The position numbers and the translations under genes were made by a program. Source: Escherichia coli (GTDB lineage: Bacteria; Pseudomonadota; Gammaproteobacteria; Enterobacterales; Enterobacteriaceae). Taken from it: a DNA stretch of 64,000 bases. Location of the stretch: assembly GCA_025336725.1 (NCBI GenBank), contig GCA_025336725.1_3647.1, one strand, 5' to 3'. The notes beneath the pieces were generated by a model that worked only from the letters and a program-made list of their open reading frames with translations, was not told the DNA's origin and searched no databases. Positions within the stretch are counted from its first letter, which is position 1; each line of letters starts with the position of its first letter. Of the stretch, positions 19,606-54,323 are shown one piece after another.

Positions 19606-20088
19606 ATGGCGGTCAATGTGGCTTACAACACAGGAAAGCTTGACAGAGACATTGGGTGTCTTGTCCTTTCAGATACAGAGGAGTATTGGGGTTATGGGTT
19701 GCTGTCAGACCCACACCCGAGCAACCTTGTATCAACGGTGCTCTATCGCTACGACCCTGTACCAACGGTGCACGACAAAGATATTCACGACCTTCGGATC
19801 AAGTGTCTGGAAGATCTTCTGAACAATGGCTGCAACGATCTGCGGGTAGCCAAGGAGAAGCTTACAAACATTCACAAAGAGGAAGTGATGAGCACCCTCA
19901 GTAAGAGGTCAGTGCACAAAAAGATGATGTTAAACTTTGCGATGGGTATCTACATGGATGGGTATAAGGGAGGGGATCCGATCCTCAAGCTTCGCTGCCC
20001 AACACTGTGGGAAAGAGTGGTTGACAGTAAAGACAGTACTGCCCTGCTAGAGAACTCCACACTGCAGGTTGGATTTGGCGGTATGTAG
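19606..20088 (+). CDS. hypothetical protein
   Basis: 160 aa ORF. Confidence 0.45.
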   Translation: MAVNVAYNTGKLDRDIGCLVLSDTEEYWGYGLLSDPHPSNLVSTVLYRYDPVPTVHDKDIHDLRIKCLEDLLNNGCNDLRVAKEKLTNIHKEEVMSTLSKRSVHKKMMLNFAMGIYMDGYKGGDPILKLRCPTLWERVVDSKDSTALLENSTLQVGFGGM

Positions 20089-20230
20089 ACGGATACCCTC
20101 TGTGGGCATGTGGGCCTGGGGAATTTGTTGACAGACCTAGCGCGGTAGTGGATTTGCTATTGCAGTTTGAATAAAAGGTGAGTTATAAAGCATTCATACA
20201 CCTATCAACAATACAACAAGAGAGACTGAG

Positions 20231-22355: not shown

Positions 22356-22363
22356 CTATAAAA

Positions 22364-22390
22364 GAAAGGGGGCATTTCTCCCTTTTTTAT
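22364..22390. terminator. bidirectional terminator at convergence of plus and minus operons
   Basis: GGGGG-CATTT-CTCCC hairpin with T-rich flank on the plus strand (TTTTTTAT) and on the minus strand (TTTCTTTT). Confidence 0.5.
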
Positions 22391-22395
22391 CTTTA

Positions 22396-23043
22396 CTACT
22401 TGTTAAAGAGAGAAAGTCGCGTAGGCTCCAGACGATACTGCTGGTCACCAGGGAACATAACACCTATAGAGGCTGTCCCTAGAATCCTACCTTCCTTTCC
22501 AGACTCCATTCTGAACCCTACCCATCCTGAACTCCTTGCAGCCTCGATGTTGTCGCTATACCCGAAAGTGGCAAGATCGTCAACACCAGCCCCAAACAGC
22601 AACTGAAGCTGACTTCTCGGAAGCCCTATAATTTCAGGAATATATGCACCAAAGTACACCATCTGCCCTACCTTAGGACCACTGCCGTACTCCATCGGCT
22701 TGCTTGTAGGAAAAGTCTTCATACCAGAAGTCCCTGCCGGATTAGGGTATGCCCCGTTTGTTGCTGTGCCTATCCACATTCTCCACTGAGGTGCCATCTG
22801 TCTGACAGTGAAAGATGTTGAAGACGTTTTGCGGCCTGCATCATCCGTAACTACAAACTTTATAGTGACATTACCAGGGGCTTTAAATGTTACCAATCCT
22901 GTGGTAGCATCCACTGTTGCAATGCTAGTATTACTACTTTCCCAAGTCTTTCTAATCCCTGGCACATTGGAAGGGGTAATAGAAGGTTCCTGCATCTGCA
23001 GTTTACCGCCCACAATCCCTATGCCGTTACCTGGATTATACAA
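22396..23043 (-). CDS. Ig-like (Big_2-type) domain protein; possibly C-terminal extension of upstream large protein
   Basis: ..WESSNTSIATVDATTGLVTFKAPGNVTIKFVV.. Big_2-like; ORF-track start is TTG, frame open from 14 nt below the upstream stop. Confidence 0.4.
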   Translation of the reverse strand: MYNPGNGIGIVGGKLQMQEPSITPSNVPGIRKTWESSNTSIATVDATTGLVTFKAPGNVTIKFVVTDDAGRKTSSTSFTVRQMAPQWRMWIGTATNGAYPNPAGTSGMKTFPTSKPMEYGSGPKVGQMVYFGAYIPEIIGLPRSQLQLLFGAGVDDLATFGYSDNIEAARSSGWVGFRMESGKEGRILGTASIGVMFPGDQQYRLEPTRLSLFNK

Positions 23044-23057
23044 CGCACCAACTTCAT

Positions 23058-26000
23058 CTACAATGTTACCTGCCTTGAGGTCAGCTTTAGAGAAGCTGGG
23101 GTGCCGTTATATGTGTGTGTCCCTGAGAAGGTTACATCTGCCTTGCCGTTGGAGATGCAAACCAAAGCATACTTCCTGTCAGGTAACTGTGCCCCAGTTT
23201 CTGGGTGAGTTTTACCCACCTGGAACACGCTCGGGTCAGTAGAGTCGTGGCTATCACTAACAGAGCTTGGACCCCCCATCAACTGTGACAAGCAATTCCT
23301 TACCCATGTCCAGTTATTGTCACTAGAGAAGTCTACAGTCAAATCAAACACAACCCACTCATTTGGCTTCCACACAGGTGTTGTGATCAACTTACCAACA
23401 CCCCCACCCTGAAGGGTAGGAGATTGTTCAGTGATCAAGGCAGAGTATGCCAGAGTTCCCAACTGCATAGTCTGGCTTGCTGTCCTCACTACCTTAGAAT
23501 CAGCATCTGTGAAGTTGTTGATGATCTGGAATGTGCCATAAGTGTTTTTACAGGTAATTCTGGCATTCAGTGTATCAATCTTTCTCACATCTGCCATGGC
23601 AGTGTTAGACACAGAGAAGTCAGAAGCTTTAGCTGAGTTTGCTGCAACAGCCGGATCAACGTTGAGGGTTGCGTTGAACTGGCAGGCAGGAGTAACCAGT
23701 AGCTTGTTATCACCTATTTGCTTCCATGAAACACTTTGAACAGGGAGATTCCATTTAATACCTGAGAAAACTTTAGCAACCCTTGGTCCCAAAGCTCCAG
23801 TTCTATTGTCTTTACAGCACATAGACATAGTGATCGTTGACGGAGTTGCTTGACCAAACAATTGCTGTGCTTTTGCAGAGGACATAGTGTAGAAATTGTC
23901 CTTAACAAACTCATCAGCCGCTAACGATCCGTCAGACCTCCACCATTGTACCTGGTACCCTGTCTTATCCCAGCCACCAACCTGCTTCAAGTCCTCCCAA
24001 GAGATTTCTAGATCCCCAGTGGTAGGATTGATTGCAGCAGTTCCTGGTGTACCGGATGACCACAATGGGATATCGAACCACGCAGGTTTAACAGATTGCA
24101 CTGCGTTAGGACCTATTGCAGCAGCAAGTTGCCGGCCCATCAATACGCGAGCATCTTTCACCAGACCCCACTCGATCATAGATCCAGAGTAACCTTCTTT
24201 CTTGTAGGCTGAGGATCCGTTCAGATGGATGAGTCTGCTGCAGTCGAAGCCATACGCCCCGCCACCGTTAGGGTCTGCAAAGTTAGTTATGATTCTATCC
24301 CTAATATTTTTCCATGCCCTACCTCCAATCTCGTAGCCATGATCATAGCATCTTTGCAACGTTGTCCAGCAAATGATTGCCATTCTTCTGCCGCCCGTGA
24401 ACCCGAAAGCGCCGTCATTCAGCTCTTTCCACAGGTAACAGTTGGTTGTCCACATAGCCCTGTGGATATTGAACCAGTTTATAGATTTAGCGGAGTTGTT
24501 CCACCGAGTTCCGGGTAATTCAGGCCACACTGCATTTACTAGCATGTCCTCTGTACCAGCATCTATCAGGAAGCCTCTTACCTTCTTGCCCATACCTGCC
24601 CTGTCTTTAGCAATCCAATTGCCAAACAGTCTCAGTTTTGGACCGTAGACAACATCTTCTGGATGCTCAAAAGAAACATACTTTAGATATACTGTAGGGT
24701 CACCATAGGTGCCATCACAAACAGCTTTGTGCATGTTCTCGCCAAGATCTAAACGAAGTCCTGTTACAACTTTAGACGTGTCGGTGAATTTGTCTGTTAA
24801 ATCAAATTCATACCACCACCATCCACCGCCAAGCATGAATTTCTTGCATCGCACAGTGTCTGTATCGGATATTCTCTTATCCCCAGCAAAAGGTGAATCA
24901 GCAAACTGATAGTGCAGAGCAGTCTCGAACAGATGTGTTGATGTGCCGTTTTCTGCAAGAACTTGCTTGCCTATTAAGTCACACTTAATGATCATCACAA
25001 CACGCTTGTACCCGTTTGTTACCGGAACTTGCATAGATATAGATGTTCCGTCCATGTTCGATCTTAGTACGGTCATGATGATATAGGGGTCAACAGCGTT
25101 GCCTAAAGTTTCAGGCCCTGGGATTATCTTGTACTTCTTGACCTGCCCCATAAATCTATCACTGGCGTAAGTTGCAGCCTCTAAGCAAGAGCCTCCACCA
25201 GGTAACTCACCAGGTCCCCAGAAAAATGCGCCATAACAGTTATAAAACCACTTGTTAGGGTCGTATTTGTTCTTGAAGGTCTGAACCTCGTTGGCCTGTT
25301 TTGTCAAGAAAACCTGCGTATCTGTGAAGATTGCAGGGTTTACTCTTGACTGTCGATTAGCATACCCGGTTTGGTTAAACCATTGATTGCAAGAGTAGTC
25401 CCTCATATAGTCATAATCAGAGTATTTGTTGTTTGCATCCTCGTTCCAACACATATTGAGGTTGGTGCCGCCCATGCACACAATATATTCTTCAACGTAT
25501 TTATCACTTCTGGTAGGAACACCTATGAACCATCTGTTAACAGGCTCATCCCAAGCGGTGCGCTCATCTTTAACGCAGATCGCAATCCAGTTATGTGTCC
25601 CTGTTTTCTTGCACACATCTCGCTTCATACCGTAGTAGAATTCTTTAGTATTTGGCTCAGGTGCGCTTATTAGGTAGCTCCACGCCTGGTCCGCATAGGT
25701 TCCATTGGTACGAGGGTCATGATCAAAAGCATACATGATGATCCTTTCCCCACCAAGATGTTCGCCAAGAGTAACTTTGATATTCACATCGCCGTAACCG
25801 TTGCGAACAACATCCATATTGTCAATAGAGATGCCTCTAGGGGTGTAGGCAATTTTCAGTGAGTTATCCTCACTAGTGCCACCAAGGGTGATCCCTATGT
25901 TGTTTGTTGTCCCGTCGGCATATCTTACTGTGGCTTCCCAGCGTATTCCGAAATATCCTACATCATGGCTGACAATTTTCAGTGTACGAGCACCAGAGTT

Positions 26001-26369
26001 AGGTTTTCCAGGATCAGGCCAAGGGTTTGGGTGTTCGTGAACAGTTAACGATGTCCCGTTTTGTTCATTGACCTGCAACATTTTACCACCTCTGCCGTTT
26101 GGGTTGAACTCCCATAAGGCCTGTGTCTGCACCAAGTTATCATAGGTATTTCGTCGCTGATTATAAATCTCTTGGGTAACATCATAAGTTACTGATCCAG
26201 CATCCATTCTATGGAGTCTGACCATATACGATGTATCCCCTTCTACTGCAGGCTGAGCCGCATTCAGTCCAAAGTATATAGTATCATTAACATGGAACTG
26301 TTTGTTTCTACCGACAGTATGCCATTTACCATCAGACTGGTAAGCCGGGACAATGGTGTTCCAGTTCAA
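23058..26369 (-). CDS. large tail fiber / tailspike-like protein with putative carbohydrate-active domain
   Basis: 1103 aa; ORF-track start is TTG without good RBS; frame open upstream into 3' end of ORF 26423..28033. Confidence 0.45.
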   Translation of the reverse strand: MNWNTIVPAYQSDGKWHTVGRNKQFHVNDTIYFGLNAAQPAVEGDTSYMVRLHRMDAGSVTYDVTQEIYNQRRNTYDNLVQTQALWEFNPNGRGGKMLQVNEQNGTSLTVHEHPNPWPDPGKPNSGARTLKIVSHDVGYFGIRWEATVRYADGTTNNIGITLGGTSEDNSLKIAYTPRGISIDNMDVVRNGYGDVNIKVTLGEHLGGERIIMYAFDHDPRTNGTYADQAWSYLISAPEPNTKEFYYGMKRDVCKKTGTHNWIAICVKDERTAWDEPVNRWFIGVPTRSDKYVEEYIVCMGGTNLNMCWNEDANNKYSDYDYMRDYSCNQWFNQTGYANRQSRVNPAIFTDTQVFLTKQANEVQTFKNKYDPNKWFYNCYGAFFWGPGELPGGGSCLEAATYASDRFMGQVKKYKIIPGPETLGNAVDPYIIMTVLRSNMDGTSISMQVPVTNGYKRVVMIIKCDLIGKQVLAENGTSTHLFETALHYQFADSPFAGDKRISDTDTVRCKKFMLGGGWWWYEFDLTDKFTDTSKVVTGLRLDLGENMHKAVCDGTYGDPTVYLKYVSFEHPEDVVYGPKLRLFGNWIAKDRAGMGKKVRGFLIDAGTEDMLVNAVWPELPGTRWNNSAKSINWFNIHRAMWTTNCYLWKELNDGAFGFTGGRRMAIICWTTLQRCYDHGYEIGGRAWKNIRDRIITNFADPNGGGAYGFDCSRLIHLNGSSAYKKEGYSGSMIEWGLVKDARVLMGRQLAAAIGPNAVQSVKPAWFDIPLWSSGTPGTAAINPTTGDLEISWEDLKQVGGWDKTGYQVQWWRSDGSLAADEFVKDNFYTMSSAKAQQLFGQATPSTITMSMCCKDNRTGALGPRVAKVFSGIKWNLPVQSVSWKQIGDNKLLVTPACQFNATLNVDPAVAANSAKASDFSVSNTAMADVRKIDTLNARITCKNTYGTFQIINNFTDADSKVVRTASQTMQLGTLAYSALITEQSPTLQGGGVGKLITTPVWKPNEWVVFDLTVDFSSDNNWTWVRNCLSQLMGGPSSVSDSHDSTDPSVFQVGKTHPETGAQLPDRKYALVCISNGKADVTFSGTHTYNGTPASLKLTSRQVTL

Positions 26370-26422
26370 AGTCCTTGTTGTATGAGTCCTGCCTGTGCCA
26401 TGTTTGTCATGATAGGTTATTT

Positions 26423-28033
26423 TTACGGATACAGCCCACGTCTGTTAACATTCCTGTTATACTGGGTGACAATAACTTCGTTGGCCCCTCCGTGGTTCCA
26501 GTTGGTAGAGAATTGGTAATTTGCATCTGTAACAACCGTGCCTGCAGCATTTACCAGTTCAATCTTGTCAATAATGAACGTAGCCCCCTCTGGCTGAGGC
26601 TTCAATTTCATCTTGACTGTGTCGCCAATGTAGATATTGCTAACGCTGCTAACACCGTTAACGTCGAAAATATCATCAACTCCCCAACTGTCTACTGGGA
26701 CATTTTTATACCAATTCTCAGGAACCTCTGTGAACCCTTGACTATTAAGTCTGCCGCCAAACAGGTTATTAGAACCTGCAAAACTTCCCCTTGGAATGCC
26801 TGACCACCAAAGTTTACCATTAACAACAGTAAAAGTCCCTAAGAAACCTTCTCTGTGAATGCCTTGGAAATAAACACTTTCTGTCCAGCTAACTGGGAGG
26901 CGTTGCTCAACGTATTTGGCTGTGGCAAGAGCTTGATAGTGGATAAAATTGGCCCTGGGGCTATTGTTTGCAGACTGTGCACCAATATCATTACATAAGT
27001 TGCGAGAGAATCCGCGATACTGCTTAGTACCATTATTGAAGAAAATGCCACTTGTTCCGTACCCACGAGCCATTATTACTTCATGGGTGTAGGTAATATT
27101 TAAGGAACGCCATGTATCATCTCCCCAGACATCTTGCCCGTAGAATACGTTAACAAGCTGCTGATCATTAGGCTTGTGCATCCTCTGCGTTGCAATTATC
27201 GCCCCGTTAGGACCACACATGAATCCTTTCCACTCCTCATCTGCAGGAATGCCTTTCAAATCGTTGCGAGTAATCTGAGCAGGGGGCCAAACAAGGTCGT
27301 TTCTACTGTTGTTTCTCAGAAAGTCGTATCCAGCAATCCAAAAACCTCTAGGCCCACCGAAAATAACAGAGTTGTCATGCACCTCGCAGTTGATACTTGG
27401 GTTTTTCCAAGGGCCTGTTTCAGGATTTTCTGATGTTTCACCAATCTTTACAGGAGTTGCATGCTGGTTCTTATCTACATGTAAAGATCCGTAGGTGTTG
27501 TTACCAGACCCATACAGGTTCAGTATGCCAGTACCTTCTGCCTCTGCAATAACCCAGACAGTGTTGTTAATACCTCCCATTACCTCAATAAGGCGCTCTG
27601 GGTGGGTGTCAAGGTGCAATCCTTTAACAATCTGTTCCGGAAGAGGTGTCCACTCGTTGACGCAAACATCGTTACCACCTGCCGCAGTGGATCCGATAAG
27701 ACCTGCAGTGCAGCCGATGTAGAAAAACTGGTTATCAAAAGTCCGGATCACAAACGCACGGTCTGCTCTCCACACATGATCAACATTCCAGGCTGTCTCG
27801 CTCGGGTAGTTTATAGGGCTACGATCCCCAGTGCGACACTCCCCGAACTTGTTATAGCCAGTAATATTAAGCTGACCATCGTCAAAAAGTATAGCTAAGC
27901 TATTTACATAAGCTACTGTAGTGCTTGTACCGTCACTGTTGTCTATTGGATATGACAGAACAGCAAGTTCCTTAACTCCACTCCTCTTATCGAGGAAATG
28001 ACGACCAAGTTTTAGCAAAGGGATTGGAAGCAT
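26423..28033 (-). CDS. tail fiber/tailspike-like protein, possibly N-terminal part of the 23058..26369 protein
   Basis: 536 aa; ATG with GGAGA RBS; Gly/Asn-rich beta-rich repeats. Confidence 0.45.
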   Translation of the reverse strand: MLPIPLLKLGRHFLDKRSGVKELAVLSYPIDNSDGTSTTVAYVNSLAILFDDGQLNITGYNKFGECRTGDRSPINYPSETAWNVDHVWRADRAFVIRTFDNQFFYIGCTAGLIGSTAAGGNDVCVNEWTPLPEQIVKGLHLDTHPERLIEVMGGINNTVWVIAEAEGTGILNLYGSGNNTYGSLHVDKNQHATPVKIGETSENPETGPWKNPSINCEVHDNSVIFGGPRGFWIAGYDFLRNNSRNDLVWPPAQITRNDLKGIPADEEWKGFMCGPNGAIIATQRMHKPNDQQLVNVFYGQDVWGDDTWRSLNITYTHEVIMARGYGTSGIFFNNGTKQYRGFSRNLCNDIGAQSANNSPRANFIHYQALATAKYVEQRLPVSWTESVYFQGIHREGFLGTFTVVNGKLWWSGIPRGSFAGSNNLFGGRLNSQGFTEVPENWYKNVPVDSWGVDDIFDVNGVSSVSNIYIGDTVKMKLKPQPEGATFIIDKIELVNAAGTVVTDANYQFSTNWNHGGANEVIVTQYNRNVNRRGLYP

Positions 28034-29836: not shown

Positions 29837-30103
29837 TTAAGCTTTTTGCTCTTCGTTTTTAACGTAGTCAGGGTGCTGGCAACCCCACCGGAGCGAGATG
29901 AATTTGCTAATAAGCTGGGGGCAAGCTACCGAAGGTGCGTATATCCACGCATACCATTCAGGAAGCGTATCATTATACCCCATATGAATAAACACCCCAG
30001 TCATCACTGCCATGCCTATGTTTGACCATAGCTTAGATTGGGACACTTTCGTAGGGTCATCAGATGCCGCAACCAACCCCCATAAAAACTGAGTTAATTT
30101 CAT
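29837..30103 (-). CDS. small membrane protein (holin-like topology?)
   Basis: 88 aa; 2-3 hydrophobic segments and charged C-terminus. Confidence 0.3.
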   Translation of the reverse strand: MKLTQFLWGLVAASDDPTKVSQSKLWSNIGMAVMTGVFIHMGYNDTLPEWYAWIYAPSVACPQLISKFISLRWGCQHPDYVKNEEQKA

Positions 30104-30112
30104 TTACCCTCT

Positions 30113-30850
30113 TTAAGCATAAGATATCGTGATCCATTGACCGTTTACAAATTTTTGAATAGCACCAGTCCAATAGTCACCTTGATACGGGTGTTTATAG
30201 GCGTAATTGCCGGAGCACATTACATGCCCAGGGTATACTCTTGATTCTCTGTAGGTGGTTCTGAAACGGTTTGCTATCCTTACATCTTCAACACCCCTAC
30301 TAGGCATAGGGATAGTAAGGTTACCACTGCTATCTGCGCTACTACCATTTACCCTGCGGACCACGTTTCTCCCACCAACTGTTGCATATTGACCTCTGGC
30401 GGTTTTATCGTTACAATCTACTCTTCCCCCTATTTGAGCGCTGCCGCAGGATTGTTGTCCATTAACAGTGGCTCTAGGTATCGTTACCGCATTAGCATTT
30501 GCAGAGGAGCTTTTTGCATCATTGCATTCAAGATTCCCTTGGATAGCCAGTCTTGCACGGTTGGCAGTTATAGCATTGAGCTTCATAGCCGAAAACACAG
30601 GTTGCCCACCAGAAGGTTGAAATCTCCAACGGAAACCGTCTATTTGGTGAGAGGGATCATCAAGGTCTGTGCCGTCAGCACCACCTATGTTGTCCATAAT
30701 CCAGAAATCCATCATCGTCTTGTCTGGAGTTATGGTGGTGTATATCGCCGCATTGTCTGTTGACGCGGATGCGAACTCGATTCTTTGAAGACCTAAAGTT
30801 TGAGTCTGGATCATTGTGTCTCCAGCCTTGTCAACATAAAGGTCATCCAT
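30113..30850 (-). CDS. tail fiber 1, C-terminal part (P2 gpH / Mu S-like); frame-split from N-domain ORF
   Basis: C-terminus ..AIQKFVNGQWITISYA resembles P2 gpH end (..IQKYINGTWYNVAQV); paralogue of 32171..32956. Confidence 0.6.
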   Translation of the reverse strand: MDDLYVDKAGDTMIQTQTLGLQRIEFASASTDNAAIYTTITPDKTMMDFWIMDNIGGADGTDLDDPSHQIDGFRWRFQPSGGQPVFSAMKLNAITANRARLAIQGNLECNDAKSSSANANAVTIPRATVNGQQSCGSAQIGGRVDCNDKTARGQYATVGGRNVVRRVNGSSADSSGNLTIPMPSRGVEDVRIANRFRTTYRESRVYPGHVMCSGNYAYKHPYQGDYWTGAIQKFVNGQWITISYA

Positions 30851-31161
30851 TTCTTCAGGCGAGTATACATTGAGAACTTGACGTGCGGCAGCTTTGTCTG
30901 GAACGTCTGCTGATTATTAGTGACCCTTAAGAATCTATTATCCCATCCTGGGACAACATCTTCTGTTAAATGCTTCAACATTTGGTGAGAGAGCATGTGA
31001 AGTTCAAAGTTATCAACCTCACATGCCACTCTTTGTGTCATATCCCAACCTTTCAATCTCTCTTCTTTTTTTGGCTGAGACTTATTCAACTCTCCCGTAT
31101 TTTCAAGCACAACATCCTGATTGGCCCAAATATCAAGAGGGATAACTGGTTTAGTCATCAC
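30811..31161 (-). CDS. tail fiber 1, N-terminal domain ORF (different frame)
   Basis: AGGAG RBS + ATG; MMTKPVIPLDIWANQDVVL..KGWD.. homologous to N-domain ORF 33019..33213; last ~45 codons look out of frame. Confidence 0.5.
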   Translation of the reverse strand: MMTKPVIPLDIWANQDVVLENTGELNKSQPKKEERLKGWDMTQRVACEVDNFELHMLSHQMLKHLTEDVVPGWDNRFLRVTNNQQTFQTKLPHVKFSMYTRLKKWMTFMLTRLETQ

Positions 31162-31209
31162 GTTCTCCTGAGAAAATTCCTTAGACTATTTTAACACTTT
31201 AGAGAACAA

Positions 31210-31240
31210 ATGCAAGAACGGAGTCCTTTCCGTTCTGACC
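31210..31240 (-). terminator. terminator-like hairpin
   Basis: Minus strand GAACGG-AAAGGACT-CCGTTC followed by T-rich tract, upstream of fiber-1 RBS. Confidence 0.3.
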
Positions 31241-31368
31241 TTTGTTTACCTTTTACTATGCTCTACGAGCATGTGCAAAATCTTTTGTATAGTCGGCTCG
31301 ATGTTTCGAGACATCTGTCCTGACATCCTGCTTAAGGTCGTTAATATCGGCCTCTAGCTTGCTTAACT

Positions 31369-31560
31369 CTAAGTCTCGATAACGGAATCGTTATCTTTTT
31401 GTAACCATGCTATTTTCGACACTAAAATGAGGTCTTTCTCCAGCTCATCTAGCCTCTTGGAAATTCCTTTCATTTGCACACTGGTTGAAAGCCCATACAC
31501 AGATCGGGACAACAGTAGCTTCCATGCAGATACCGTATAAAGCCGCCAAATCCAACCCAC
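31369..31560 (-). CDS. small hypothetical protein; coiled-coil continuation in -1 frame to 31256
   Basis: GTG start 5 nt after strong GAGGAGG RBS; -1 frame continues ..LSKLEADINDLKQDVRTDVSKHRADYTKDF.. with no start codon. Confidence 0.4.
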   Translation of the reverse strand: MGWIWRLYTVSAWKLLLSRSVYGLSTSVQMKGISKRLDELEKDLILVSKIAWLQKDNDSVIET

Positions 31561-31571
31561 AACACCTCCTC

Positions 31572-32156
31572 TTAGAGGGTAGGTCGTCTCCCGAAGAAAA
31601 TGTCAGGGGCTTTAGATGTATCTATTTCAAGCAGTTTTACCCTGTATATTTTCAAATCTCTGATGTTGCGTTTTTGGTCATCAGTAAGATCGTATTCAAG
31701 GTCAATCATGTCTTGATAGGCACCAATTCTAGCAGTAGCCCAAGCAAGTTCTGTCTCTATGACACCCTCTGCCTGTTGAACAAAGAATTCATTGTCTGTG
31801 ACAAATTCATCACCAACTAAACGCAAAGCGTCGTGGTGGAGCATAATGTTTTCTGGTACCTCTTCTTTTTTGGCGATAACCACACGAAGACCTGGAGCAG
31901 GCCACAAGGCATCAGGTTCTTCTGTAGATGTCTTAAGAATACCCTTCTCGTCAACAAGTAGGAAGATACAGCCCGGATTTTCTTGTCGTAGTGTTCGTGA
32001 TTGCACATACCAATCGCCATCATCATTACGTAAAAAATATCCGGTGTATGCCGTGTAATCCTCAACCTCCTGAGGAGTCAGCTCCTTGGTCTCCTTGTTG
32101 GTGTAGTATTCGCCAGATCCCGGTTGGTAAAGTTTAAACTCTTGAAGTATTTTCAT
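31572..32156 (-). CDS. tail fiber assembly protein (Tfa / gpG / Mu U family)
   Basis: 194 aa; C-terminus ..IRDLKIYRVKLLEIDTSKAPDIFF.. resembles lambda Tfa (..[22 protein letters not shown]..). Confidence 0.75.
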   Translation of the reverse strand: MKILQEFKLYQPGSGEYYTNKETKELTPQEVEDYTAYTGYFLRNDDGDWYVQSRTLRQENPGCIFLLVDEKGILKTSTEEPDALWPAPGLRVVIAKKEEVPENIMLHHDALRLVGDEFVTDNEFFVQQAEGVIETELAWATARIGAYQDMIDLEYDLTDDQKRNIRDLKIYRVKLLEIDTSKAPDIFFGRRPTL

Positions 32157-32170
32157 GCTAGTCCTCCGAT

Positions 32171-32956
32171 CTATGCATAATTAACAGTGATCCATTGACC
32201 ATTTACAAGTTTTTGTAAAGGTCCTGCCCAGTAGGTTGAACCACGCATCTCTTTTTTGTCACCGAAATGCCAGCCTGTGACAACGTAGCCGTTGCGGATT
32301 GGAGATTCAGAAACGCCGTCCACAAGTCTTGCACCGATTCTGATGTCTTGCACACCTGTCTGCGGGATAGTGATCGTTACATCACCGTTACCGTTAGCCG
32401 TCACTCCGTTCACAGAGCGAACCACATTTCTGTTACCTACAACACAGTGCTGGCTTCTTACAACCATACTGTCACAACTTGCACCACCATTAACATATAC
32501 TGACCCAGCCGTCAACTGACTGGCAACATTACAGTTGGTGAATGTTGCTGTATTGCTGATAGTAAGGTTATTGCACCTCATGTTATCGACAACTTCAACA
32601 TTGCCTACCACTTTCAACAGCGCACGGTTAGCCGTGATCGCGTTAAGGTACATCAAAGTGAACTCTGGATTAATATCCGGCTGAGTTGGCTGGAATCTCC
32701 AACGAAACGCATCTACTGTAGATGTGCCACCATCATCAAACGCCCCAGTGTTATCACTTAACCCAAAGTCGAGAGTTGTCTTATCTGGACCGATAGTTGT
32801 CTCTATCCAAGCCTTATCTGTCTCGGCAGCTTTAAAGTTGATACGCTGCAAACCTAAGGGGCCTGTCATTGTATCGCCTGTAACTTTTACATACCTGGCG
32901 TCTGCCTCTTCCTTAGTAATAATCCCAAGGTTTCTACGGGCAACAGGAATGTTCAA
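32171..32956 (-). CDS. tail fiber 2, C-terminal part (P2 gpH / Mu S-like); frame-split from N-domain ORF
   Basis: C-terminus ..PLQKLVNGQWITVNYA; ORF-track start is TTG preceded by TGA TAA TAA; followed by Tfa gene. Confidence 0.6.
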   Translation of the reverse strand: MNIPVARRNLGIITKEEADARYVKVTGDTMTGPLGLQRINFKAAETDKAWIETTIGPDKTTLDFGLSDNTGAFDDGGTSTVDAFRWRFQPTQPDINPEFTLMYLNAITANRALLKVVGNVEVVDNMRCNNLTISNTATFTNCNVASQLTAGSVYVNGGASCDSMVVRSQHCVVGNRNVVRSVNGVTANGNGDVTITIPQTGVQDIRIGARLVDGVSESPIRNGYVVTGWHFGDKKEMRGSTYWAGPLQKLVNGQWITVNYA

Positions 32957-33018
32957 AAATCGCTCAGGTTATTATCACGTATTGTGATAACGGCCCTCTG
33001 TAAGGTGGGATCTGCTCG

Positions 33019-33213
33019 TCAGCAATATATTTTGCCCAAGTCCCGGAGCATATTGAAAATATAGTTAAGTTCTTCACATGACGGCTTTTGACCAAGATCC
33101 CAACCTTTTCTCCACAAATCATCAATCGGGCGTAGCCTGTTCTGTCTGTGGGTGTTAGGCAGAACCTGATCCTCCTCTGCCCAAATCTCTAATGGAAAAC
33201 TAGGTTTTGACAT
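33019..33213 (-). CDS. tail fiber 2, N-terminal domain ORF
   Basis: 64 aa; MSKPSFPLEIWAEEDQVL..KGWD.. homologous to 30811..31161. Confidence 0.5.
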   Translation of the reverse strand: MSKPSFPLEIWAEEDQVLPNTHRQNRLRPIDDLWRKGWDLGQKPSCEELNYIFNMLRDLGKIYC

Positions 33214-33225
33214 TTTATCTCCTGA

Positions 33226-35298
33226 TTATGAGAAGTCTGGCGGGACAACATCTTCTACATACCCTTTCAGAGCAACCTGCCCCATATGAAGCACGGTAGA
33301 ATCTCTGGCGGTAACAGTGATGCTGTCAGACATTACTTGCGGGTATGCCCACACATACTGTTTTACCTCAGGGTATCTATACTCTATGGTTGCCATGTTC
33401 CCGCAGATACATCTCCATAAAAATTCTTGGTAATTCCTGGTTGGGTCGTAGCCATATACCGGAGCAAGCTCTTTGCTAGGAACGAACCCTGCAAGGTATT
33501 GTATTTCAGACGGTTGCCAACCTAACTTAACGATAGGTATGTTTACAGACTCTTTTGCCTTTTCAATACCACCCTGCATCACCCAATCGTAGCACTCAGT
33601 GCAGAAGAAATCAAGAGCACCTGCTTCCTTTTTATATTGGTCAGCAAGGTTCAGCTTTTGCGTAAGCTCGGTTTCCATAATGGTCGGAAAAAACAGCAAA
33701 GCTGTCATCTGAGCCGATGCAGCGTGTGCTTTTATTGCCTTTGAAATAGCTGCAATACGAGCGCCAAGCTTACCACGACAAAATGCTACATACTTGTCAT
33801 AAACACCACCAGTTTTAGGATCGTCAATAGTCCCAATATCTAATGCATACTCGCCTGTCTCATCATAAAACGCCTGTTTTGTAGGGTAATCATAAATACA
33901 AGGTCTACGAGTATCGGTATTGTACCACCACCATGGTTCACCAACCTGCATAATCACTGGCAGGTTGTTTCTCATAGCGGCTGATGCAAAATTCTTAAAT
34001 ACTGCAGTAAGGAAATTCATACCCTCTTCAATGGTTGGAGACAGGAGGTAGCTACAAGGTGTATACCCTGTTTTAGCGTAGTTATCGTTCCAGTCTCTTT
34101 GGGTCCATTCCAACGGACAGGCATCGCTGAAAAGCTCAAAACTTACAGATTGCATAACGTCGAAGTTATGTCGTTTGGCATTGTACATAAAATCATCATG
34201 CCATTTATAAGCTGCAGCGTTTAGAGCTCCTGTTTTGTTTATAGACCATTGGGTTCCTGACCATGTGTAGTCATAATAATGGCTCATACCAACATAATGG
34301 TTTATGGTTCCTGTATAGCCCAGACGCTTGATATTGCTCAACACCCTTAAAGGGGATACGTTCCACATATCGTCATATGCGGTGCAGATCCCAACGTCAT
34401 GCTCTTTCACTTGAATATTGTTAAGTTGCATCATTTTCCAACCTGTGTCTGGCTGAAGCAGATCTAGGCGCAACTCACACTCTACATTTTCCGTTCTTGG
34501 GTCTGTGCTATTGCTTACCCAATCTTTAGGCATAAGCGGTATTAAAATCCTTCTCACCTGTCGAGGATCAACACCCATCATGTTGTTGTTCTGGTCCATC
34601 CCGACGCAGTCCTCGAAATCAATATGAATTTCTGCAACATTCTTATCCTCTGAGATGCTGACAGCATATTGAGCTAAAGGAACATAGATGATTGTGCCAT
34701 CAACAAGGTCTACAGTCATAATCATCTTTTCAGGGGTGGAGAAGTTGCTGGCATTAGTTATTGACATTCTGAACCAAAGCTTGGTGTTTCTCATCTCATA
34801 GTGATCATCAAATCCAATGCCGAAATGGTCATACTTGTCAACTGTTTCCCAAATGCACCCAGCCATGCCTCCATATGTTCTTGACACTAAACGGTTAATA
34901 CAGCAGTTATTATCCGCAACAATACAGGTGCTTTCAGTCTGCTGTGTGTTTGTAACCCAATATCTTGGGTGAAACATTCTCTCCTCAACGGTATCCCAAG
35001 ATATTCTGTCAAGATTCTCATCTGAAACTATTGTACATTTTGCTCTTTGTGTTCCAATCATAACCCCTTGGGAGTTTGATGAAAACTCCATAAAGAAGCT
35101 TCTTGGCAACCTGTTTGGCAATTTGTCAACAATTTCTACAGGAATCTCAATACTGGTTGCCCCAACCGGGATAGTTACATCGCCCTCAACATGATCATAA
35201 TCCCTACCTGGAACGGCAGTATCTTGAACTGTGCGATAATGAAACCGTGCAGCCATTGTAGAGTAATCACGGTAAGGTTTAAAAACAGCTATTGCCAT
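33226..35298 (-). CDS. tail protein with Calx-beta-like N-terminal domain (receptor-binding / enzymatic candidate)
   Basis: 690 aa; Calx-beta-like ..QDTAVPGRDYDHVEGDVTIPVGATSIEIPVEIVDKLPN..EF.. Confidence 0.4.
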   Translation of the reverse strand: MAIAVFKPYRDYSTMAARFHYRTVQDTAVPGRDYDHVEGDVTIPVGATSIEIPVEIVDKLPNRLPRSFFMEFSSNSQGVMIGTQRAKCTIVSDENLDRISWDTVEERMFHPRYWVTNTQQTESTCIVADNNCCINRLVSRTYGGMAGCIWETVDKYDHFGIGFDDHYEMRNTKLWFRMSITNASNFSTPEKMIMTVDLVDGTIIYVPLAQYAVSISEDKNVAEIHIDFEDCVGMDQNNNMMGVDPRQVRRILIPLMPKDWVSNSTDPRTENVECELRLDLLQPDTGWKMMQLNNIQVKEHDVGICTAYDDMWNVSPLRVLSNIKRLGYTGTINHYVGMSHYYDYTWSGTQWSINKTGALNAAAYKWHDDFMYNAKRHNFDVMQSVSFELFSDACPLEWTQRDWNDNYAKTGYTPCSYLLSPTIEEGMNFLTAVFKNFASAAMRNNLPVIMQVGEPWWWYNTDTRRPCIYDYPTKQAFYDETGEYALDIGTIDDPKTGGVYDKYVAFCRGKLGARIAAISKAIKAHAASAQMTALLFFPTIMETELTQKLNLADQYKKEAGALDFFCTECYDWVMQGGIEKAKESVNIPIVKLGWQPSEIQYLAGFVPSKELAPVYGYDPTRNYQEFLWRCICGNMATIEYRYPEVKQYVWAYPQVMSDSITVTARDSTVLHMGQVALKGYVEDVVPPDFS

Positions 35299-37591: not shown

Positions 37592-38144
37592 TTAGTCGTG
37601 AGACTCGTTCCAAGGTCCCTGGAAGCTTGAGTTAGAACGGCTTACCACAACAGTAGGACAGGATATTGCGACCCCTGTTACAGAAGACGTTGACCATGGT
37701 GTGTAGATTTCAACAACAATATCTATGGTTTGTTCACCAAGACCTGTTATCCCTACCGCACACATGCCGTTGTTGTCGTTTCCGTATTTCTTACCTGCAA
37801 GGATTTGATGTCCGGCTATCCAAACGTTGAGCTGGGGTTTCGGCAAGAGTAGCCATTCAGTTTAAAGAAGAATGTTACGTTCTTACCCTGACCTGAAACG
37901 TTATCTACGTATCTCCACCTCCAACGGCAAACCCTTTGCTTGGGAGTTATATACTGGAGCACAATCCCCGTAAGTCCCTGTGTGTGCAACAATTGCACCG
38001 AACTGGTTAGCACGGATAACAGAAGCTTCTACACGACCACGGAAGGTATCTCCGGTTGCATCTATGGTGCCTCTAAAGCTACCATTATTGGCATAAATAT
38101 CCCCACGGAAGGTACCACTAGTGGCGTTAACTGCCCCCGTGAAG
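37592..38144 (-). pseudogene. frameshifted 3' continuation of lambda J-like gene (receptor-binding region in three frames)
   Basis: After stop at 38145 a -1 frame encodes ..GNFTGAVNATSGTFRGDIYANNGSFRGTIDATGDTFRG.. (lambda J C-terminal-like), then two more frame changes (ORFs 37816..38013, 37592..37846). Confidence 0.5.
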
Positions 38145-41100
38145 TTACCAGAACTGGCGTTGAGCGTTGCCTTTCACCCACACATCCATAAATTGGGGCG
38201 TGCCCGTTCTTGTTAATATACCAACCGTATTTATGGTACTTCCGTTGCCATCGTAGTTGTTTGACGAAATCTCCTGTGCAATCTTGGCTGAAGAGATCGT
38301 GCCATTTTCTATGAAGGCATCTTTCAAGAACGCTTGGTTGTTCTTGATTGCGAAAGCAAGGGTTGCTGTTCCGTTTCCAGGGTTATATACCGCAAAATTG
38401 TTTGCACTAACCATAAAGTAGGATTGAACTTGGCCCCCAGACCCTTCCATCCCCAACTGGATACCTGCAACATATTTATTCCCTGCGGAGTCCACCTGTA
38501 TTTTTGTGCCCCACTGAGCGTTTACTTTACCCTCTAAGTCGGTTACAGCCTTAGATGTTGTAGCTACTGCAGCCCTGATCTCGGACACATCTCCAACATC
38601 ATCAATGATCTCCTGCTTAGCAACAGCAAGTTCTTGACGAATAGCTGACGCTGTTCCGTTAATCAGGTCAACAGTGGCCTGATTAGTTTCAGAAATATTT
38701 GCAGACAAATCTTTCTTAGCTTGGGTAAGCTTATTATCCAACCCCGTAATATTGTTGGTGTTGGTTGTAATCTGCCCTTTAGCAGAGGTTAATTGTTCAG
38801 ATAAGGCTGCAGTTTTCTGATTCAGCAGGTCCGTTGTGGCCTTGTTGGTGGTAGAGATCAATGTATTGAGATCAGATTTAGTGGTGTTGATCTTGCCATC
38901 TAGAGTGGTGTAGTTTTTAGATACCGTGGCGTTAGTCTGGCTAATCTTCTGGTCAAGAGTCTGAGAAGTTCTATTCAGCAAATCCACAGTGGCCTGATTG
39001 GTGCTCAGAATGCTTGCATCCAGCTCAGATCTCTGAGTATTCAACTTACCTTCCAGGCTCTTATCTCCAGCCAGATATCCTTTTTCAACATCACCGATCT
39101 GCTCGGTTAGCTCACCTTGTGCAGCAACCAGTTTTTCATCCAACGCATCTGTTTTCTTGTTAAGAAGATCAGTGGTGGATTTGTTGGTTGTCTCAATCAA
39201 CGACGACAGTTTGGCACTCTCATTATTCAAGTTGTTGGTCAACTCACCTTTCGTTGCCGTCAGCTTATTGTCCAGTGCCTCGGTTTTCCGATTAAGGAGA
39301 TCTGTAGTCGTCTTATTGGTTGATACAATCAGAGAGTTCAGCTCAGAGCTTTCCTGTGCTAAAGCATCTTCCAACTCCCCCCTTGTTGAAACAATCTTCT
39401 CGTCCAAAGCTTCAGTTTTCTGATTTAGCAGATCGGTTGTAGCTTTGTTAGTGGTCTGGATTAGAGAAGTCAGCTTGCCACTTTCTTTAGAAAGATCATC
39501 TGCAAACTTGTTCTGAGTGGCTACCAGTTTCTGGTCTAGAGTGGTAAGCGTTCCATTAACGTCCTGGAAGTTGTCGTGGGTTTCTTGGATGAATATTCCA
39601 ACCCTATCCCCCAACTGAGCATACAGCTTGTCTACTCTAGAGAACTCACCTTCCATGTGGTCAAAAGCCTCGTCAACTCTACCATCCATGTACCTGTTAA
39701 GTTCTGTGACACGATTTTCAACCTCTTCAATAGAGGAATCCAAAGTGCTCATCAACTCTTTATAAGTTTCTGTCTTTTTGAATTCAGCATCTATCTGAGG
39801 CATCAAATCCTCGATAGAGGTGTAGCAGCGTGCAGCGCATTCTACAAACTGAGAGCTACCAAAAGCGTTTGTGGTTCGAATATACCAATAATAAACCTTA
39901 TCGTTCTGCAGGCCTTCAGATGTCCAAGTTGAACCAACACCCATACGGGTGGCGTTTGAAGTAACGGTTGCATCGCTGGTGTCGGGCAACCTTGTCATAC
40001 CAGATGTCCAAAAGTCATACTGGGTGCTTACACTTGCTAAATCCCTGCTGTGTGGAATCAAGGTGATAGCAAAGTATCCCTGCTTAACCTCTACAGAAAC
40101 AGGAGCTTCAGGTGCCTGAATGTTAAACTCGCAGTACGCTTCTGGAGATACACCACCTTTATAAGATGTTGCAACCACGGTTGCTGTGTATGATCCTTTG
40201 GTCAAGCCTTCTACTCGGACAAACTGCTCAACTGTCTGTGCTGTCCAAACAATCTCTCCGTTCTTTCTTACCTGCACAATATTTTGAGCGTAAGTTCCAA
40301 CGTTGTCCCAAGCCAAAACACCGTGAGTTACTTCCCCGGCTTGGAGAACGGAATACCTGAAGTTTTGCGGTTGAGCTACACCAGATGGAGATATCGGAAT
40401 ATCTACATTACCAGAGTCCGGAAGTTGTCCTGTGGCATCATTCCACTCTTTAGCATCTTGACGGAGTTTTACCTTGACACCACCCTTTTTAGTAAACTCC
40501 CATTCAAGAACCCTCATTTCTTGGCCCACTATACCAATACTTGGGAGGTTCATTGTAACGTAACGACCAGGTTTAAATTTAAAACCTCGCATATTGCAGG
40601 TGACTTCAATAATCCTGCCAGCTCTAGCGCGTCTTAAGAAGATTGCAGAAACACGCTGGGCTTGATAAGGGCTGGTAACAAAGCGATAGTCTATATCGAT
40701 TATCTTTCTTTCTCCATCCTTCTCTATCCACTCTGGGACAAACACTGATGGAAAATCTGTTTCAGAATATCCTTTGGTCGGGCTAGTGAATCTGCCAGTT
40801 ATTGTGTTGGATCTTTTGTCAAACGAGGCTTCCGGATAGATCTTAACCTCACCACAGACACAGTCCTCACTCAGTGTCATTGTTGCAGGGCCATAGTATG
40901 CACCAACCAGCAAACCATACTTACCAGCAACATAACTAAGATCTGCACCACAGGCTTTCAGCATTTCTGCCATAATACTTGCTGGGGCCTCATCCATGTC
41001 GAACTCACCGTTAATTGTGTAACGTCGCTCACTGGTTCCGTCAGCGTTTTTTACCGCCTCGTCGCATATGTTGGCAGCCTCCTTGAAGGACTCCCAGTTG

Positions 41101-41744
41101 ATGGTCTCGTCAGGACATTTAAGGTACGTTCTTAAATAGTCTAGGATCACCAAGGCAGCGTTATTGGTATACACCTCTTTACTGATACGAGGATCATAGC
41201 ATTTTTTACCAACCTTGACGAGTGTGACGTTTGGCAACCCAAAAGGAAACTTGTTAGGGTCAAACTTGAAGCTGGCACGTAGCCAACTGATCCCTCTACC
41301 TATCATGTCTGGTGACCAAGATGGGCAGTGTGTCCCCATGAAAGGATCAGCTGTTTTTCTGTCGTTATGTAGCTCCCACGATACCAAATCTCCATACGAG
41401 GAAATAGGATTACCATCGATAAGTATATCTTCTATACCTTCCAGAGGGTGATTGGCAAGAACAATAGCACAATGAAGAGTTTTGTCTCTATCCTGCTCCA
41501 AAAACGCAAGCAATCCGGATGTGCGTGTCTTACCATACACTACAGAGCAAGGTGCAGCAGAAGATCTGAGAAGCTTTTGTCTATCTTGCTGACTTCTGTA
41601 AGATTTGTTGCCCTCAAAAATCTTATCCAGAGTTCTGGTGGTAACAGTGTTCAGGCTGTCAGCCAGAGCTGCCTTGGATGCGTTCCAGTCATAACTTGAA
41701 GATCTTGCAGAAGCAACGATGTTATCAATCATTGCAATTGGCAT
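38145..41744 (-). CDS. central tail fiber / host specificity protein, lambda gpJ-like
   Basis: 1199 aa; ..APEAPVSVEVKQGYFAITLIPH.. and ..NKYVAGIQLGMEGSGGQVQSYFMVSANNFAVYNPGNG.. match lambda J; internal coiled-coil repeats. Confidence 0.75.
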   Translation of the reverse strand: MPIAMIDNIVASARSSSYDWNASKAALADSLNTVTTRTLDKIFEGNKSYRSQQDRQKLLRSSAAPCSVVYGKTRTSGLLAFLEQDRDKTLHCAIVLANHPLEGIEDILIDGNPISSYGDLVSWELHNDRKTADPFMGTHCPSWSPDMIGRGISWLRASFKFDPNKFPFGLPNVTLVKVGKKCYDPRISKEVYTNNAALVILDYLRTYLKCPDETINWESFKEAANICDEAVKNADGTSERRYTINGEFDMDEAPASIMAEMLKACGADLSYVAGKYGLLVGAYYGPATMTLSEDCVCGEVKIYPEASFDKRSNTITGRFTSPTKGYSETDFPSVFVPEWIEKDGERKIIDIDYRFVTSPYQAQRVSAIFLRRARAGRIIEVTCNMRGFKFKPGRYVTMNLPSIGIVGQEMRVLEWEFTKKGGVKVKLRQDAKEWNDATGQLPDSGNVDIPISPSGVAQPQNFRYSVLQAGEVTHGVLAWDNVGTYAQNIVQVRKNGEIVWTAQTVEQFVRVEGLTKGSYTATVVATSYKGGVSPEAYCEFNIQAPEAPVSVEVKQGYFAITLIPHSRDLASVSTQYDFWTSGMTRLPDTSDATVTSNATRMGVGSTWTSEGLQNDKVYYWYIRTTNAFGSSQFVECAARCYTSIEDLMPQIDAEFKKTETYKELMSTLDSSIEEVENRVTELNRYMDGRVDEAFDHMEGEFSRVDKLYAQLGDRVGIFIQETHDNFQDVNGTLTTLDQKLVATQNKFADDLSKESGKLTSLIQTTNKATTDLLNQKTEALDEKIVSTRGELEDALAQESSELNSLIVSTNKTTTDLLNRKTEALDNKLTATKGELTNNLNNESAKLSSLIETTNKSTTDLLNKKTDALDEKLVAAQGELTEQIGDVEKGYLAGDKSLEGKLNTQRSELDASILSTNQATVDLLNRTSQTLDQKISQTNATVSKNYTTLDGKINTTKSDLNTLISTTNKATTDLLNQKTAALSEQLTSAKGQITTNTNNITGLDNKLTQAKKDLSANISETNQATVDLINGTASAIRQELAVAKQEIIDDVGDVSEIRAAVATTSKAVTDLEGKVNAQWGTKIQVDSAGNKYVAGIQLGMEGSGGQVQSYFMVSANNFAVYNPGNGTATLAFAIKNNQAFLKDAFIENGTISSAKIAQEISSNNYDGNGSTINTVGILTRTGTPQFMDVWVKGNAQRQFW
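38640..39500 (-). repeat. tandem ~130-nt coding repeats inside J-like gene
   Basis: About 6 repeats of ..SxLxSLIxTTNKxTTDLLNxKTxALDxKLxxxxGELT..; boundaries approximate. Confidence 0.5.
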
Positions 41745-43411: not shown

Positions 43412-46400
43412 TTACTTCAGTTTCTCTTGCAACCCAGTAACAACCTCTGTCAATTTTTTAACCTGCTCCTCAAGGGCGGTTATTTTATCATCCTGTTCCC
43501 TGCAAACCTGGACAAGCAAGCCTGTAACAGCTGCGTAGTCAACGTTATAGAACCTTTCCTCGGTCATCAGAGGAATACCGTCTTGAGTAGGACCTTCTAT
43601 TTCCTTCCTTTTCACGAAAGACCCTACTGCCTCTGGCAATGCTTCCATAACCTCTTGAGCAATCACGCCTGCATAAGGCATACCATTCTCTTTCAAGGTG
43701 TAGGTATAGCCTTTCATCTTTCTAATTGCTTCCAGAGCGTTAGGTATGACCTCTATATTATCCTTCAGGTCACGGTCAGAACTTTGACTAACAGTGGTGC
43801 ACTCTACCGTGCCGTTGACAGCAAAATATCTTGATTTAGCCTCATCTGCCTTAGCTCCACAGTGGAATACCCAGCTGGCGGCTGTTGAGTTATCACTTAT
43901 CTGAAGCTCCAGCACACTCTTCCTATCCGCGCCATTACCCCAATAGAATAATCTAGCATTATCAGCAGGTAGGTTACCGTTGTTGCTGGGATCTTCAGAA
44001 CCACCAACATGAATGCATAGCTCTTTATCTGTTTCATCAACATTTCGATTCGGGCGTAACTGGATAGCTTTACCAGAATCATGCCGCCAAACTTCCCACA
44101 TATAAGTGGAGCCAGTTCTATCCATGTTACCAACACGCGTGTATCTGTCACCAAAACGTGTGATGTACTCCTGTACGCATCCTTTCGGATTGTTTGCATT
44201 GTTCTGGTAAACAATCAGAGTACCAGCGTACGGTGCTGGGTAATGTCTTTCAGATGTCGAGTTGGCATCAAGATGTTGGTGATAGATGCCCTCACAAGTA
44301 CCATCGTAAGTGTTTAGGTCTGTAGATTCAAGACCTGCACCTCTGTGTGAGAAGATCTTGTTCCACGGTCTGTGAGCACCACCCTCAATAGATCTGGTAT
44401 ACAACCTATCAAGGCGACCAGCTATCTGGAAAGCATAATTCCCAGAAAATGCCACAGACAGACCGCCAACAACCATCGAACCTTCCGGCCCGTTGACATT
44501 GCCAGCCATTATCTTGGAGGGGTTTGTATTACCAAACTGATTGTTCCAGTCAGCACCTGTCTGGCAAACATAGCCTCCCGGAGGGAAAAATGTGCCGTCT
44601 TTGTTGAAATTGTAGAACTTATGAGCTGTACCTACAACATCGCGAACGATAACTTGACCAGCTTCCGGAGTAGATCTGAACTCTGCCTGGCCTTGCAGTC
44701 TTGCACCATTACCACATTTAGAGGTAAAGGTGTTGTTGATCAGATCCTCTGTTCCTTCCGATGCAGCCTGGAACCCTGCATTAGAGAACAGTGCTTTTCG
44801 AGTAGTCTGACTACCTGGGCAGATGTAGTTAAGACCGTTGCACCATAACTCTGTCAGGCCAAACTCTGTTTTATTGGACAGGAAATATCTGTCAGAAGAC
44901 CCACGATACATCCACTGATTGGTGTAGAAACCTGTTACACCATTAAATTCAGCCAGAGGTCGAGTGTTTGTTACATTGTCACCTTTGATTGCTAGATTCA
45001 AGTCAGCAGATGCTAGAGGTGCACAGAATTTAACACCGTCTTGGTTGTTTGTTACATTGCCAACCTGCCAGTCTTCCTCTCTTGTTGACACCTCTATTAC
45101 GTCAGCGCTGGCATACACTGTTACAGGGAAGGCACGTGCCTCCACATAGAACGCAACATACTCTTGTTTACCCCTTGTTGGAGCAACGCACCCAAGTATC
45201 GCCTTCTCATTCTGGTAGAAATTTATCGACCCGGTAAAGAAGTCACCACGATCAGTCCAGCCACCAGTTCTGTAGTGGCACTGCAGTGTAGCACAGTTCA
45301 TAGGATCGTTGCCAGAAGAAGATCTGGTAACGATGGTTAAATCTGTCCCGATTGTTGGCGCATGGTTAGGATCGGTTCTGACAATAATCGGATAATACTT
45401 GCCATCCTGCATCGCTGCAGTTCTAGGCAGGTTTATATATGGTCTGACACCTGCTGCAAGAGGGATTCTGAATTGTGCCTGGGCATCTCCCACAGTCCTA
45501 GCACTGGTGCCACCGCAACCTATCGGCAAAGGTTCCCATTTAGCCTTGCGGTTGTTATAAACACCCCATTCCAGAGTACCATTACCGGATTCATCCATCC
45601 CTCCATCCCAGATTACCATTTTTGCGGCTTTCTTGGATCCCCAGAACCCTCTTTCTGCTCCTGAACTACGGATCCATTCTCCAAGACCCCAGTTTGTCAG
45701 CTGACCAGTAAGATCCCCAACCTGCATGTATTTAGGGCAGTCTAACACGCCATCTTCGCGGAAACCTAAATATCTATGAGTTTCAGATCCTTTTGCGCCT
45801 TTGTGCAGGTGGAGTGTCAACCAAGCCTTATTGTCGTTTCTTACCTCAGAGTAGATCCTATACCCATGCTCAAGGACACCGTCAGCGCTGTATTTGTCCC
45901 CGTTAACAATACCTGATGCTGACTTAACATCTCCAGAGTATTGAGCTAAGTAAAGGTGCCCGAAGGCTGGTGAGTTGTTTTTACCAAGGCCGATATGAGA
46001 TCTGAAGGTATCATCGTTACGAGGTCTGACCATCGGCTGCCATGCAGTCCACTGATTTGTGTTGGCCTGATAGGTTCTCAAATACCAAACATCTACGTTA
46101 GAGAATGGATAGTATTCCTGACGACAACCTGTACCGCCGTTAGCGTTGTTCTGCCAAACAATCAAGTGACCAGCACCAGAACCTGCAGGGTAACCATTTG
46201 CCTCAGTTGCATAAGCAGTCATCGGCTGGTAGTATATACCATCCTGATTACCAGTCAAGTTATTGATATTGAAATTTGGCTCAAGGGCTGCACGTTGCTT
46301 ATAGAAAGCACCGATATTGGTACGGATTCCAGCGGCATCTCTAGCCCCTGTGCCGCCCTGCTCTATAGCAAGAGGCTGCCAAGAAGCTGTTTGTTGGTTC

Positions 46401-54218: not shown

Positions 54219-54282
54219 AACCTCTCCAGGACACTCCTATACCATCTAGATATTGTATCATAAACAGCTACGTTTTTACAAC

Positions 54283-54312: not shown

Positions 54313-54323
54313 TGCACAGTTTA

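Follow-up and report, generated by a model that had tools for sequence, protein, structure and literature searches.

The split of a short tail fibre gene into two overlapping reading frames, seen in an Escherichia coli-labelled draft contig, most probably reflects a base-calling, consensus or assembly error; we put the probability of such a technical origin at roughly 0.86. Almost certainly, no biological feature underlies the split. We infer a sequence error because the lesion is private to one record, the relatives carry a contiguous gene, frameshift signals are missing at the junction and many other genes nearby are broken as well. Three marks of a sequence error are present: a private lesion, essential genes that are likewise broken and both halves of the fibre gene with the signature of purifying selection. 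The underlying gene is already well known: it is the conserved Vequintavirus short tail fibre.

The analysed stretch of 64 kb (64,000 nucleotides; hereafter the window) belongs to an rV5-like phage (Vequintavirus). A megablast search with positions 30000-33300 matched 117 phage records, 114 of them over the full length at 90-96% identity, and all 117 are rV5-like myoviruses (Vequintavirus), some of them mislabelled as 'Campylobacter phage'. Proteins of the window have exact NCBI matches in MCT7477408.1, MCT7477411.1, MCT7477412.1, MCT7477414.1 and MCT7477435.1; each of these five is encoded on one 122,420-bp E. coli-labelled contig, and the four listed locus tags span N5V81_21645 to N5V81_21780. 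The source is a virulent rV5-like phage genome that was co-assembled into the draft genome of an E. coli isolate. Intact copies of such phages are found in many other E. coli WGS records.

The gene in question, short tail fibre paralogue 1 (fibre 1; 30113..31158, minus strand), was assigned by alignment, by the annotation of its relatives and by a match to the family profile phrog_4465. Its orthologues are RudolfGeigy bas52_0037, JES2013 gp029 and the rV5 'tail fiber protein'. The counterpart in phages RudolfGeigy, JES2013 and HMD-6 is a single unbroken 1044-nt CDS annotated as short tail fibre or tail fibre protein, and the gene order in these three genomes is an 88-aa membrane protein, the fibre, a 104-aa ORF, a chaperone, a 1041-nt paralogous short fibre and a 690-aa lateral fibre. 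The neighbourhood that characterises the Vequintavirus short tail fibre, i.e. a Caudo_TAP chaperone together with a second fibre paralogue, is present in the window, all on the minus strand. Next to fibre 1 lies a 104-codon hypothetical gene (hyp36, the bas52_0036 orthologue; 31249..31562) that is itself frame-broken, as seen from its two tblastn frames; five private indels at 31292-31587 leave a 63-aa ORF as all that remains. It is followed by the intact tail fibre assembly chaperone (Caudo_TAP, Mu GpU-like; 31572..32156; phrog_136, E=3.7e-34; PF02413 on its orthologues), which is identical to MCT7477411.1, and then by short tail fibre paralogue 2 (fibre 2, the bas52_0034 orthologue; 32171..33213). 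The two short fibre paralogues show almost no allelic variation between genomes (BASEL paper, PMC8594841); they are homologous to Mu GpS, the chaperone is homologous to GpU, and the system has been tied to LPS-core dependence (PMC8594841).

Both reading frames of fibre 1 are readily recognised, and sequence inspection and tblastn confirm them as the earlier note had described them. Frame 0 starts at ATG 31158 (GTG 31161), reads MTKPVIPLDIWANQD...FLRVTNNQQTFQTKLPHVKF... and runs to a stop at 30811 on the minus strand. The -1 frame opens past a TAATAA (30919-30914), reads SADVPDKAAARQVLNVYSPEEMDDLYVDKAGDTM... and stops at 30113 on the same strand. When the intact RudolfGeigy orthologue was used as the tblastn query, residues 1-81 matched 31158-30913 (93.9%) and residues 83-347 matched 30910-30116 (95.5%) in a different frame; these matches are real homology, not a chance likeness. 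Fibre 1 can accordingly be divided into an N-terminal part in the original frame (codons 1-81; 30913..31158, minus strand, tblastn frame -2) and a C-terminal shaft and receptor-binding part in the -1 frame (codons 83-347; 30113..30910, minus strand, tblastn frame -1). The ORFs that are left, because of a 1-nt deletion, are one of 116 aa and one of 245 aa (from ATG 30850), in separate frames, so the single ORF of ~347 codons that is typical of the family is absent here. The last 34 residues of the 116-aa ORF are out-of-frame. The 245-aa fragment is missing from the protein collection, and we assume that it was annotated as a pseudogene.

The length of fibre 1 in the window, 1046 nt vs 1044, is accounted for by a 1-nt deletion and a 3-nt insertion. 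Nucleotide alignments with three and then with 13 relatives place the deletion in codon Leu82, where a T is missing between plus-strand positions 30911 and 30912 (30911..30912, the gene being on the minus strand): all relatives have CTA or CTG, and the window has C-A. At the junction the relatives read ACT AAT AAT CTA/CTG GCA GAC GTT CCA (T N N L A D V P) and the window reads ACTAATAATC-AGCAGACGTTCCA, the change at Leu82 being AAT CTA GCA to AATC-AGCA. The Leu82 deletion is the true cause of the frame break in fibre 1. The 3-nt insertion belongs to an in-frame garbled patch at codons 58-59 (30979..30987, minus strand), where GCGTGG (Ala-Trp) has become CACCAAATG (His-Gln-Met) through five substitutions and three inserted nucleotides. 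Neither the Leu82 deletion nor the codon 58-59 patch occurs in any of the 13 aligned relatives. Private alignment columns number 13 in fibre 1. Ten of them fall between reference positions 146 and 245 and affect every codon position, and the remaining three, at 84, 270 and 729, alter the third base of a codon; within the C-terminal part, 30113..30910, the only private differences are those at 270 and 729, both synonymous.

These alignments uphold the view, advanced in the earlier note, that fibre 1 is one fibre, paralogous to fibre 2, which is interrupted by a -1 frame change and restored by one added base. The note had placed the switch after a Phe codon (TTC), which is incorrect: the missing T of Leu82 lies 9 nt upstream of the TTCC (30903-30900), and the TTCC itself (30900..30903, minus strand; alignment columns 268-271) is invariant in all relatives. 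The proposed repair by an extra C (TTCC to TTCCC) does restore the frame, but at the cost of replacing the ancestral LADV by QQTF. It is also true, as noted there, that each paralogue has a TAATAA ahead of its -1 frame. In fibre 1 this hexamer (30914..30919, minus strand) is made up of the conserved codons for Asn80 and Asn81 (AAT AAT) in a shifted register, and the fibre 2 counterpart of the fibre 1 ACT AAT AAT is GAT AAT AAC, with the NN(L) motif in both; TAATAA is thus a by-product of conserved Asn-Asn codons and not a signal. Finally, the two genes had been said to be split at the equivalent position, which holds roughly (codon 82 vs 85, and the patch at 58-59 vs an insertion at 56), except that fibre 2 has four indels.

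In fibre 2, these four private indels crowd into ~90 nt. Codons 56, 71 and 76 have each gained one nucleotide and codon 85 has lost one; the corresponding sites are 33046, 33000, 32985 and 32958, with private substitutions adjoining them. Fibre 2 is thus beyond rescue by any single recoding event. Its 261-aa C-terminal fragment is NCBI MCT7477412.1, and the other, full-length members of that cluster have 346 aa. The lesions affect near-equivalent codons of the two paralogues (56-59 and 82-85), and no common nucleotide repeat is present there. Cross-talk between the paralogues, or gene conversion, at the junction was considered and rejected, the only repeat that the two genes share being 48 nt at the C-terminal end.

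We then turn to the relatives. In 117 close relatives, tblastn recovers the protein obtained by the one-base repair unbroken and over its entire length (100% coverage), and its identity to 104 phage records amounts to 95-99%; the protein also runs in a single piece across the junction in the 35-43%-identical proteins of PVP-SE1, SSE121, 4MG and Av-05. The repaired 348-aa protein aligns with phrog_4465 (tail fibre protein) over profile positions 1-342 of 342 (E=1.9e-158), and a Pfam search of the fibre returned no significant domain. Among 184 matching phage records no split fibre was found, bar one unrelated two-piece match. All 10 independent contigs from Logan, ENA and NCBI that encode an identical copy of the neighbouring 581-aa protein carry 347-aa and 346-aa fibre genes, the closest of their fibre 1 genes being 98.2% identical to that of the window. 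At the nucleotide level, a 181-nt query spanning the fibre 1 junction corresponded to a span of 179 nt in 40 of the 40 matches listed (out of 117 records), at no more than 92% identity, and the fibre 2 junction query behaved in the same way in phage records. A 22-mer specific to the deleted variant had no exact match in IMG/VR, the JGI metagenomes or the GTDB genomes, the intact 23-mer control does have matches, and complete E. coli genomes contained nothing that matched the deleted variant. The broken-fragment proteins are likewise absent from the gene-position index. Because the ORF is contiguous in every relative examined, the split is private to one draft contig and not a feature of the gene family. 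A contiguous ORF is what the earlier note had itself named as grounds for refuting its reading. Aligning both junctions with related phages, as it had proposed, revealed private indels and no conserved split, and the N-domain was not found as an independent protein in any relative, close or distant.

Damage is not confined to the two short fibres. A tblastn search with all RudolfGeigy proteins, complemented by a cluster comparison for a Hef-like gene, identified 10 frame-broken genes in the window. The tail tape measure gene (54327-56662, minus strand) is dispersed over at least five frame segments, with ORFs of 415, 69, 153 and 69 aa vs 778 aa for the intact protein; there are 18 private indels between 54261 and 55466. 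Judged against RudolfGeigy and JES2013, frames are also broken in the tail-tube initiator (53336-54218, minus strand), baseplate protein 23 (50537-51246, minus strand), the C-terminal end of an FN3 lateral fibre (37595-38240, minus strand), an Ig/intimin-like lateral fibre that is spread over three frames (22426-28033, minus strand) and hyp48 (19606-20171, plus strand); the split lateral fibres correspond to RudolfGeigy numbers 30 and 40 by tblastn. A Hef-like homing endonuclease gene (57524-59149, minus strand), which constitutes an insertion of ~1.65 kb relative to RudolfGeigy between the tail tube and tail assembly chaperone genes, encodes 540/541 aa in JEP1 and other relatives and is represented here by ORFs of 99 aa and 412 aa.

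Two further features set the window apart from RudolfGeigy. The 1326-nt gene bas52_0070, a putative N6-adenine methyltransferase gene, is missing at ~5910-5931, where its flanking genes abut. The large lateral tail fibre genes at 43415-47221 and 38166-41744 (both on the minus strand) are strongly divergent, with 82% and 77% protein identity to RudolfGeigy, and are mostly in frame; both belong to the lateral-fibre alleles for whose hypervariability Vequintavirus is already known.

When the window was set beside both RudolfGeigy and JES2013, 2451 substitutions and 56 indel events (83 positions) over 50.7 kb proved to be private to it in this three-way comparison. The indels occur in patches, at 22363-23087, 25154-25431, 26429, 30911, 31292-31587, 32958-33046, 37841-38240, 44853-45226, 51084-51109, 53791-53814 and 54261-55466. 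Private coding substitutions fall on the third codon position in 78% of cases away from indels. For those no more than 12 nt from a private indel the share drops to 55% (p=1.4e-7), and substitutions are denser there as well, at 8.4% vs 4.7% elsewhere. The neighbouring 581-aa gene differs from its relatives at 14-23 positions, all of them synonymous. The window is thus that of a genuine phage lineage which evolves normally under intact purifying selection, overlain by noise in local patches. The patches are not readily explained: homopolymers were involved in 20 of the 56 indels vs a background of 30%, i.e. there is no association, and k-mer motifs (e.g. methylation sites), GC content, divergence among the relatives and intragenomic repeats offered no explanation for them. 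Enrichment of GGTAC and GTAC was borderline after correction for multiple testing.

Taken at face value, two overlapping ORFs of which the downstream one lies in the -1 frame, together with the breakage of both paralogues in the same region, could be read as programmed -1 ribosomal frameshifting or transcriptional slippage that joins the two ORFs, in the manner of the tail-chaperone G/GT genes. We regard this as very improbable. All frames of the overlap (gene positions 200-360) lack an X_XXY_YYZ slippery heptamer, and no stable structure follows the overlap: the 106 nt of downstream RNA have an MFE of -16.6 kcal/mol vs a shuffle mean of -21.6 (z=+1.57), making the RNA less stable than its shuffles. 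The two-frame layout is not conserved either, being missing from all relatives examined, which are single-frame and keep the extra base. A shift anywhere downstream of the deletion would replace the conserved LADV, and in fibre 2 the frame would have to change four times, in both directions, over 90 nt. A literature search on frameshifts in Vequintavirus fibres found nothing relevant. Alternatively, given that each piece is an open ORF and has a start codon, the fibre could be built from two distinct gene products, a 116-aa adaptor at the N-terminus and a 245-aa distal fibre with a start of its own at ATG 30850. We hold this reading to be next to impossible. The N-domain is never separate in close or distant relatives, and the solved phiTE short fibre carries a homologous N-terminus on the same chain. 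Moreover, ATG 30850 falls 20 codons deep within conserved sequence. No AGGAG-like ribosome-binding site accompanies it; the true start, which is preceded by CAGGAGAACGTG, has the ribosome-binding site CAGGAGAACGTGATG. The 116-aa ORF would finish with its 34 out-of-frame residues and, residues 1-75 being the baseplate joint, the distal fragment alone would be without its attachment domain. Both programmed frameshifting and the two-protein fibre are effectively refuted.

A different possibility is that the deletion is real, and that a defective phage variant whose tail genes have been genuinely inactivated persists in, or contaminates, the E. coli isolate. The lesion is, after all, in the deposited sequence and is not linked to a homopolymer, the contig is shorter (122 kb) than its relatives (~137 kb), and the lesions concentrate in genes of the tail module. 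We nevertheless consider a real deletion unlikely. Since the tape measure, the tube initiator, the baseplate protein and both short fibres are broken, with the tape measure in five pieces, tails could not be built; purifying selection is otherwise undisturbed, and many of the encoded proteins recur unchanged in viable phages. Dense clusters of indels and substitutions within tens of bases are unlike natural decay, and the variant is seen nowhere else, be it in phage records, IMG/VR, the JGI metagenomes or the GTDB genomes. Were the deletion true, it would mean that the genome of a tail-defective virulent phage persists in a bacterial isolate, a reading that is disfavoured because essential genes are broken alongside otherwise intact signatures of selection. 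More improbable still would be a tail-defective rV5-like element in a carrier or pseudolysogenic state, or an unconventional recoding at NNQQTF, with the near-equivalent lesions of the two paralogues as the outcome of a site-specific process.

A sequence error therefore remains our preferred reading, and as to its source our guess is a low-coverage long-read consensus. What speaks against it is that the indels show no link with homopolymers, motifs, GC content or repeats, and that the lesions of the two paralogues coincide at near-equivalent codons. Under this explanation, fibre 1 of the working phage would be translated as one protein of ~347 residues, in which an N-terminal joint of ~80 residues would fix the fibre trimer to the baseplate wedge, followed by the 'NNLADVPDKAAAR' collar motif and then by the C-terminal shaft and receptor-binding part. 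Loss of one base from the record, the T of Leu82, makes this gene show as two overlapping ORFs, and patches of private indels and substitutions in the low-quality 122-kb contig break ~10 genes in all, several of which are indispensable. The case calls for caution: a fibre split in this way would be annotated as two ORFs or as a pseudogene, and could be mistaken for an instance of programmed frameshifting.

The closest known systems are the Vequintavirus short fibres themselves (rV5, JES2013 gp029/gp032, RudolfGeigy bas52_0037/0034), with which the window shares the gene order and, after one added base, 95-99% identity; they differ in that none has the missing T, the codon 58-59 patch or the paralogue 2 indels of the window. 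Further afield, the short tail fibre of phiTE, a myophage of Pectobacterium (PDB 9CUY/9MJN), has an N-terminus that matches residues 1-75 of the window protein (E=5e-5), and this region of the phiTE fibre forms the joint between the trimer and the baseplate wedge (PMC11972413). In the fibre 1 family the baseplate joint at the N-terminus and the shaft are parts of one chain, the junction being covered by the family profile and by all relatives. The repeats of 'short tail fiber gp92' (PDB 9ZD7) align with the FLR..NLADVP.KA.AR motif at the break. For both the phiTE and the gp92 fibres the likeness is limited to short segments, the shafts and tips being different and the proteins ~500-554 residues long. 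With the frameshift of the lambda G/GT-type tail assembly chaperones, fibre 1 shares its place as a tail-module gene with overlapping 0 and -1 ORFs. What marks G/GT sites is a conserved slippery heptamer, together with a two-frame layout that relatives share. Unlike these sites, fibre 1 of the window has neither the heptamer nor a conserved two-frame layout. Its likeness is rather to the consensus-error pseudo-genes of draft assemblies: in contrast to the classic cases, the window indels are not of the homopolymer type and cluster in patches, but private lesions, hits in essential genes, the signature of selection and repair by a single base are common to both.
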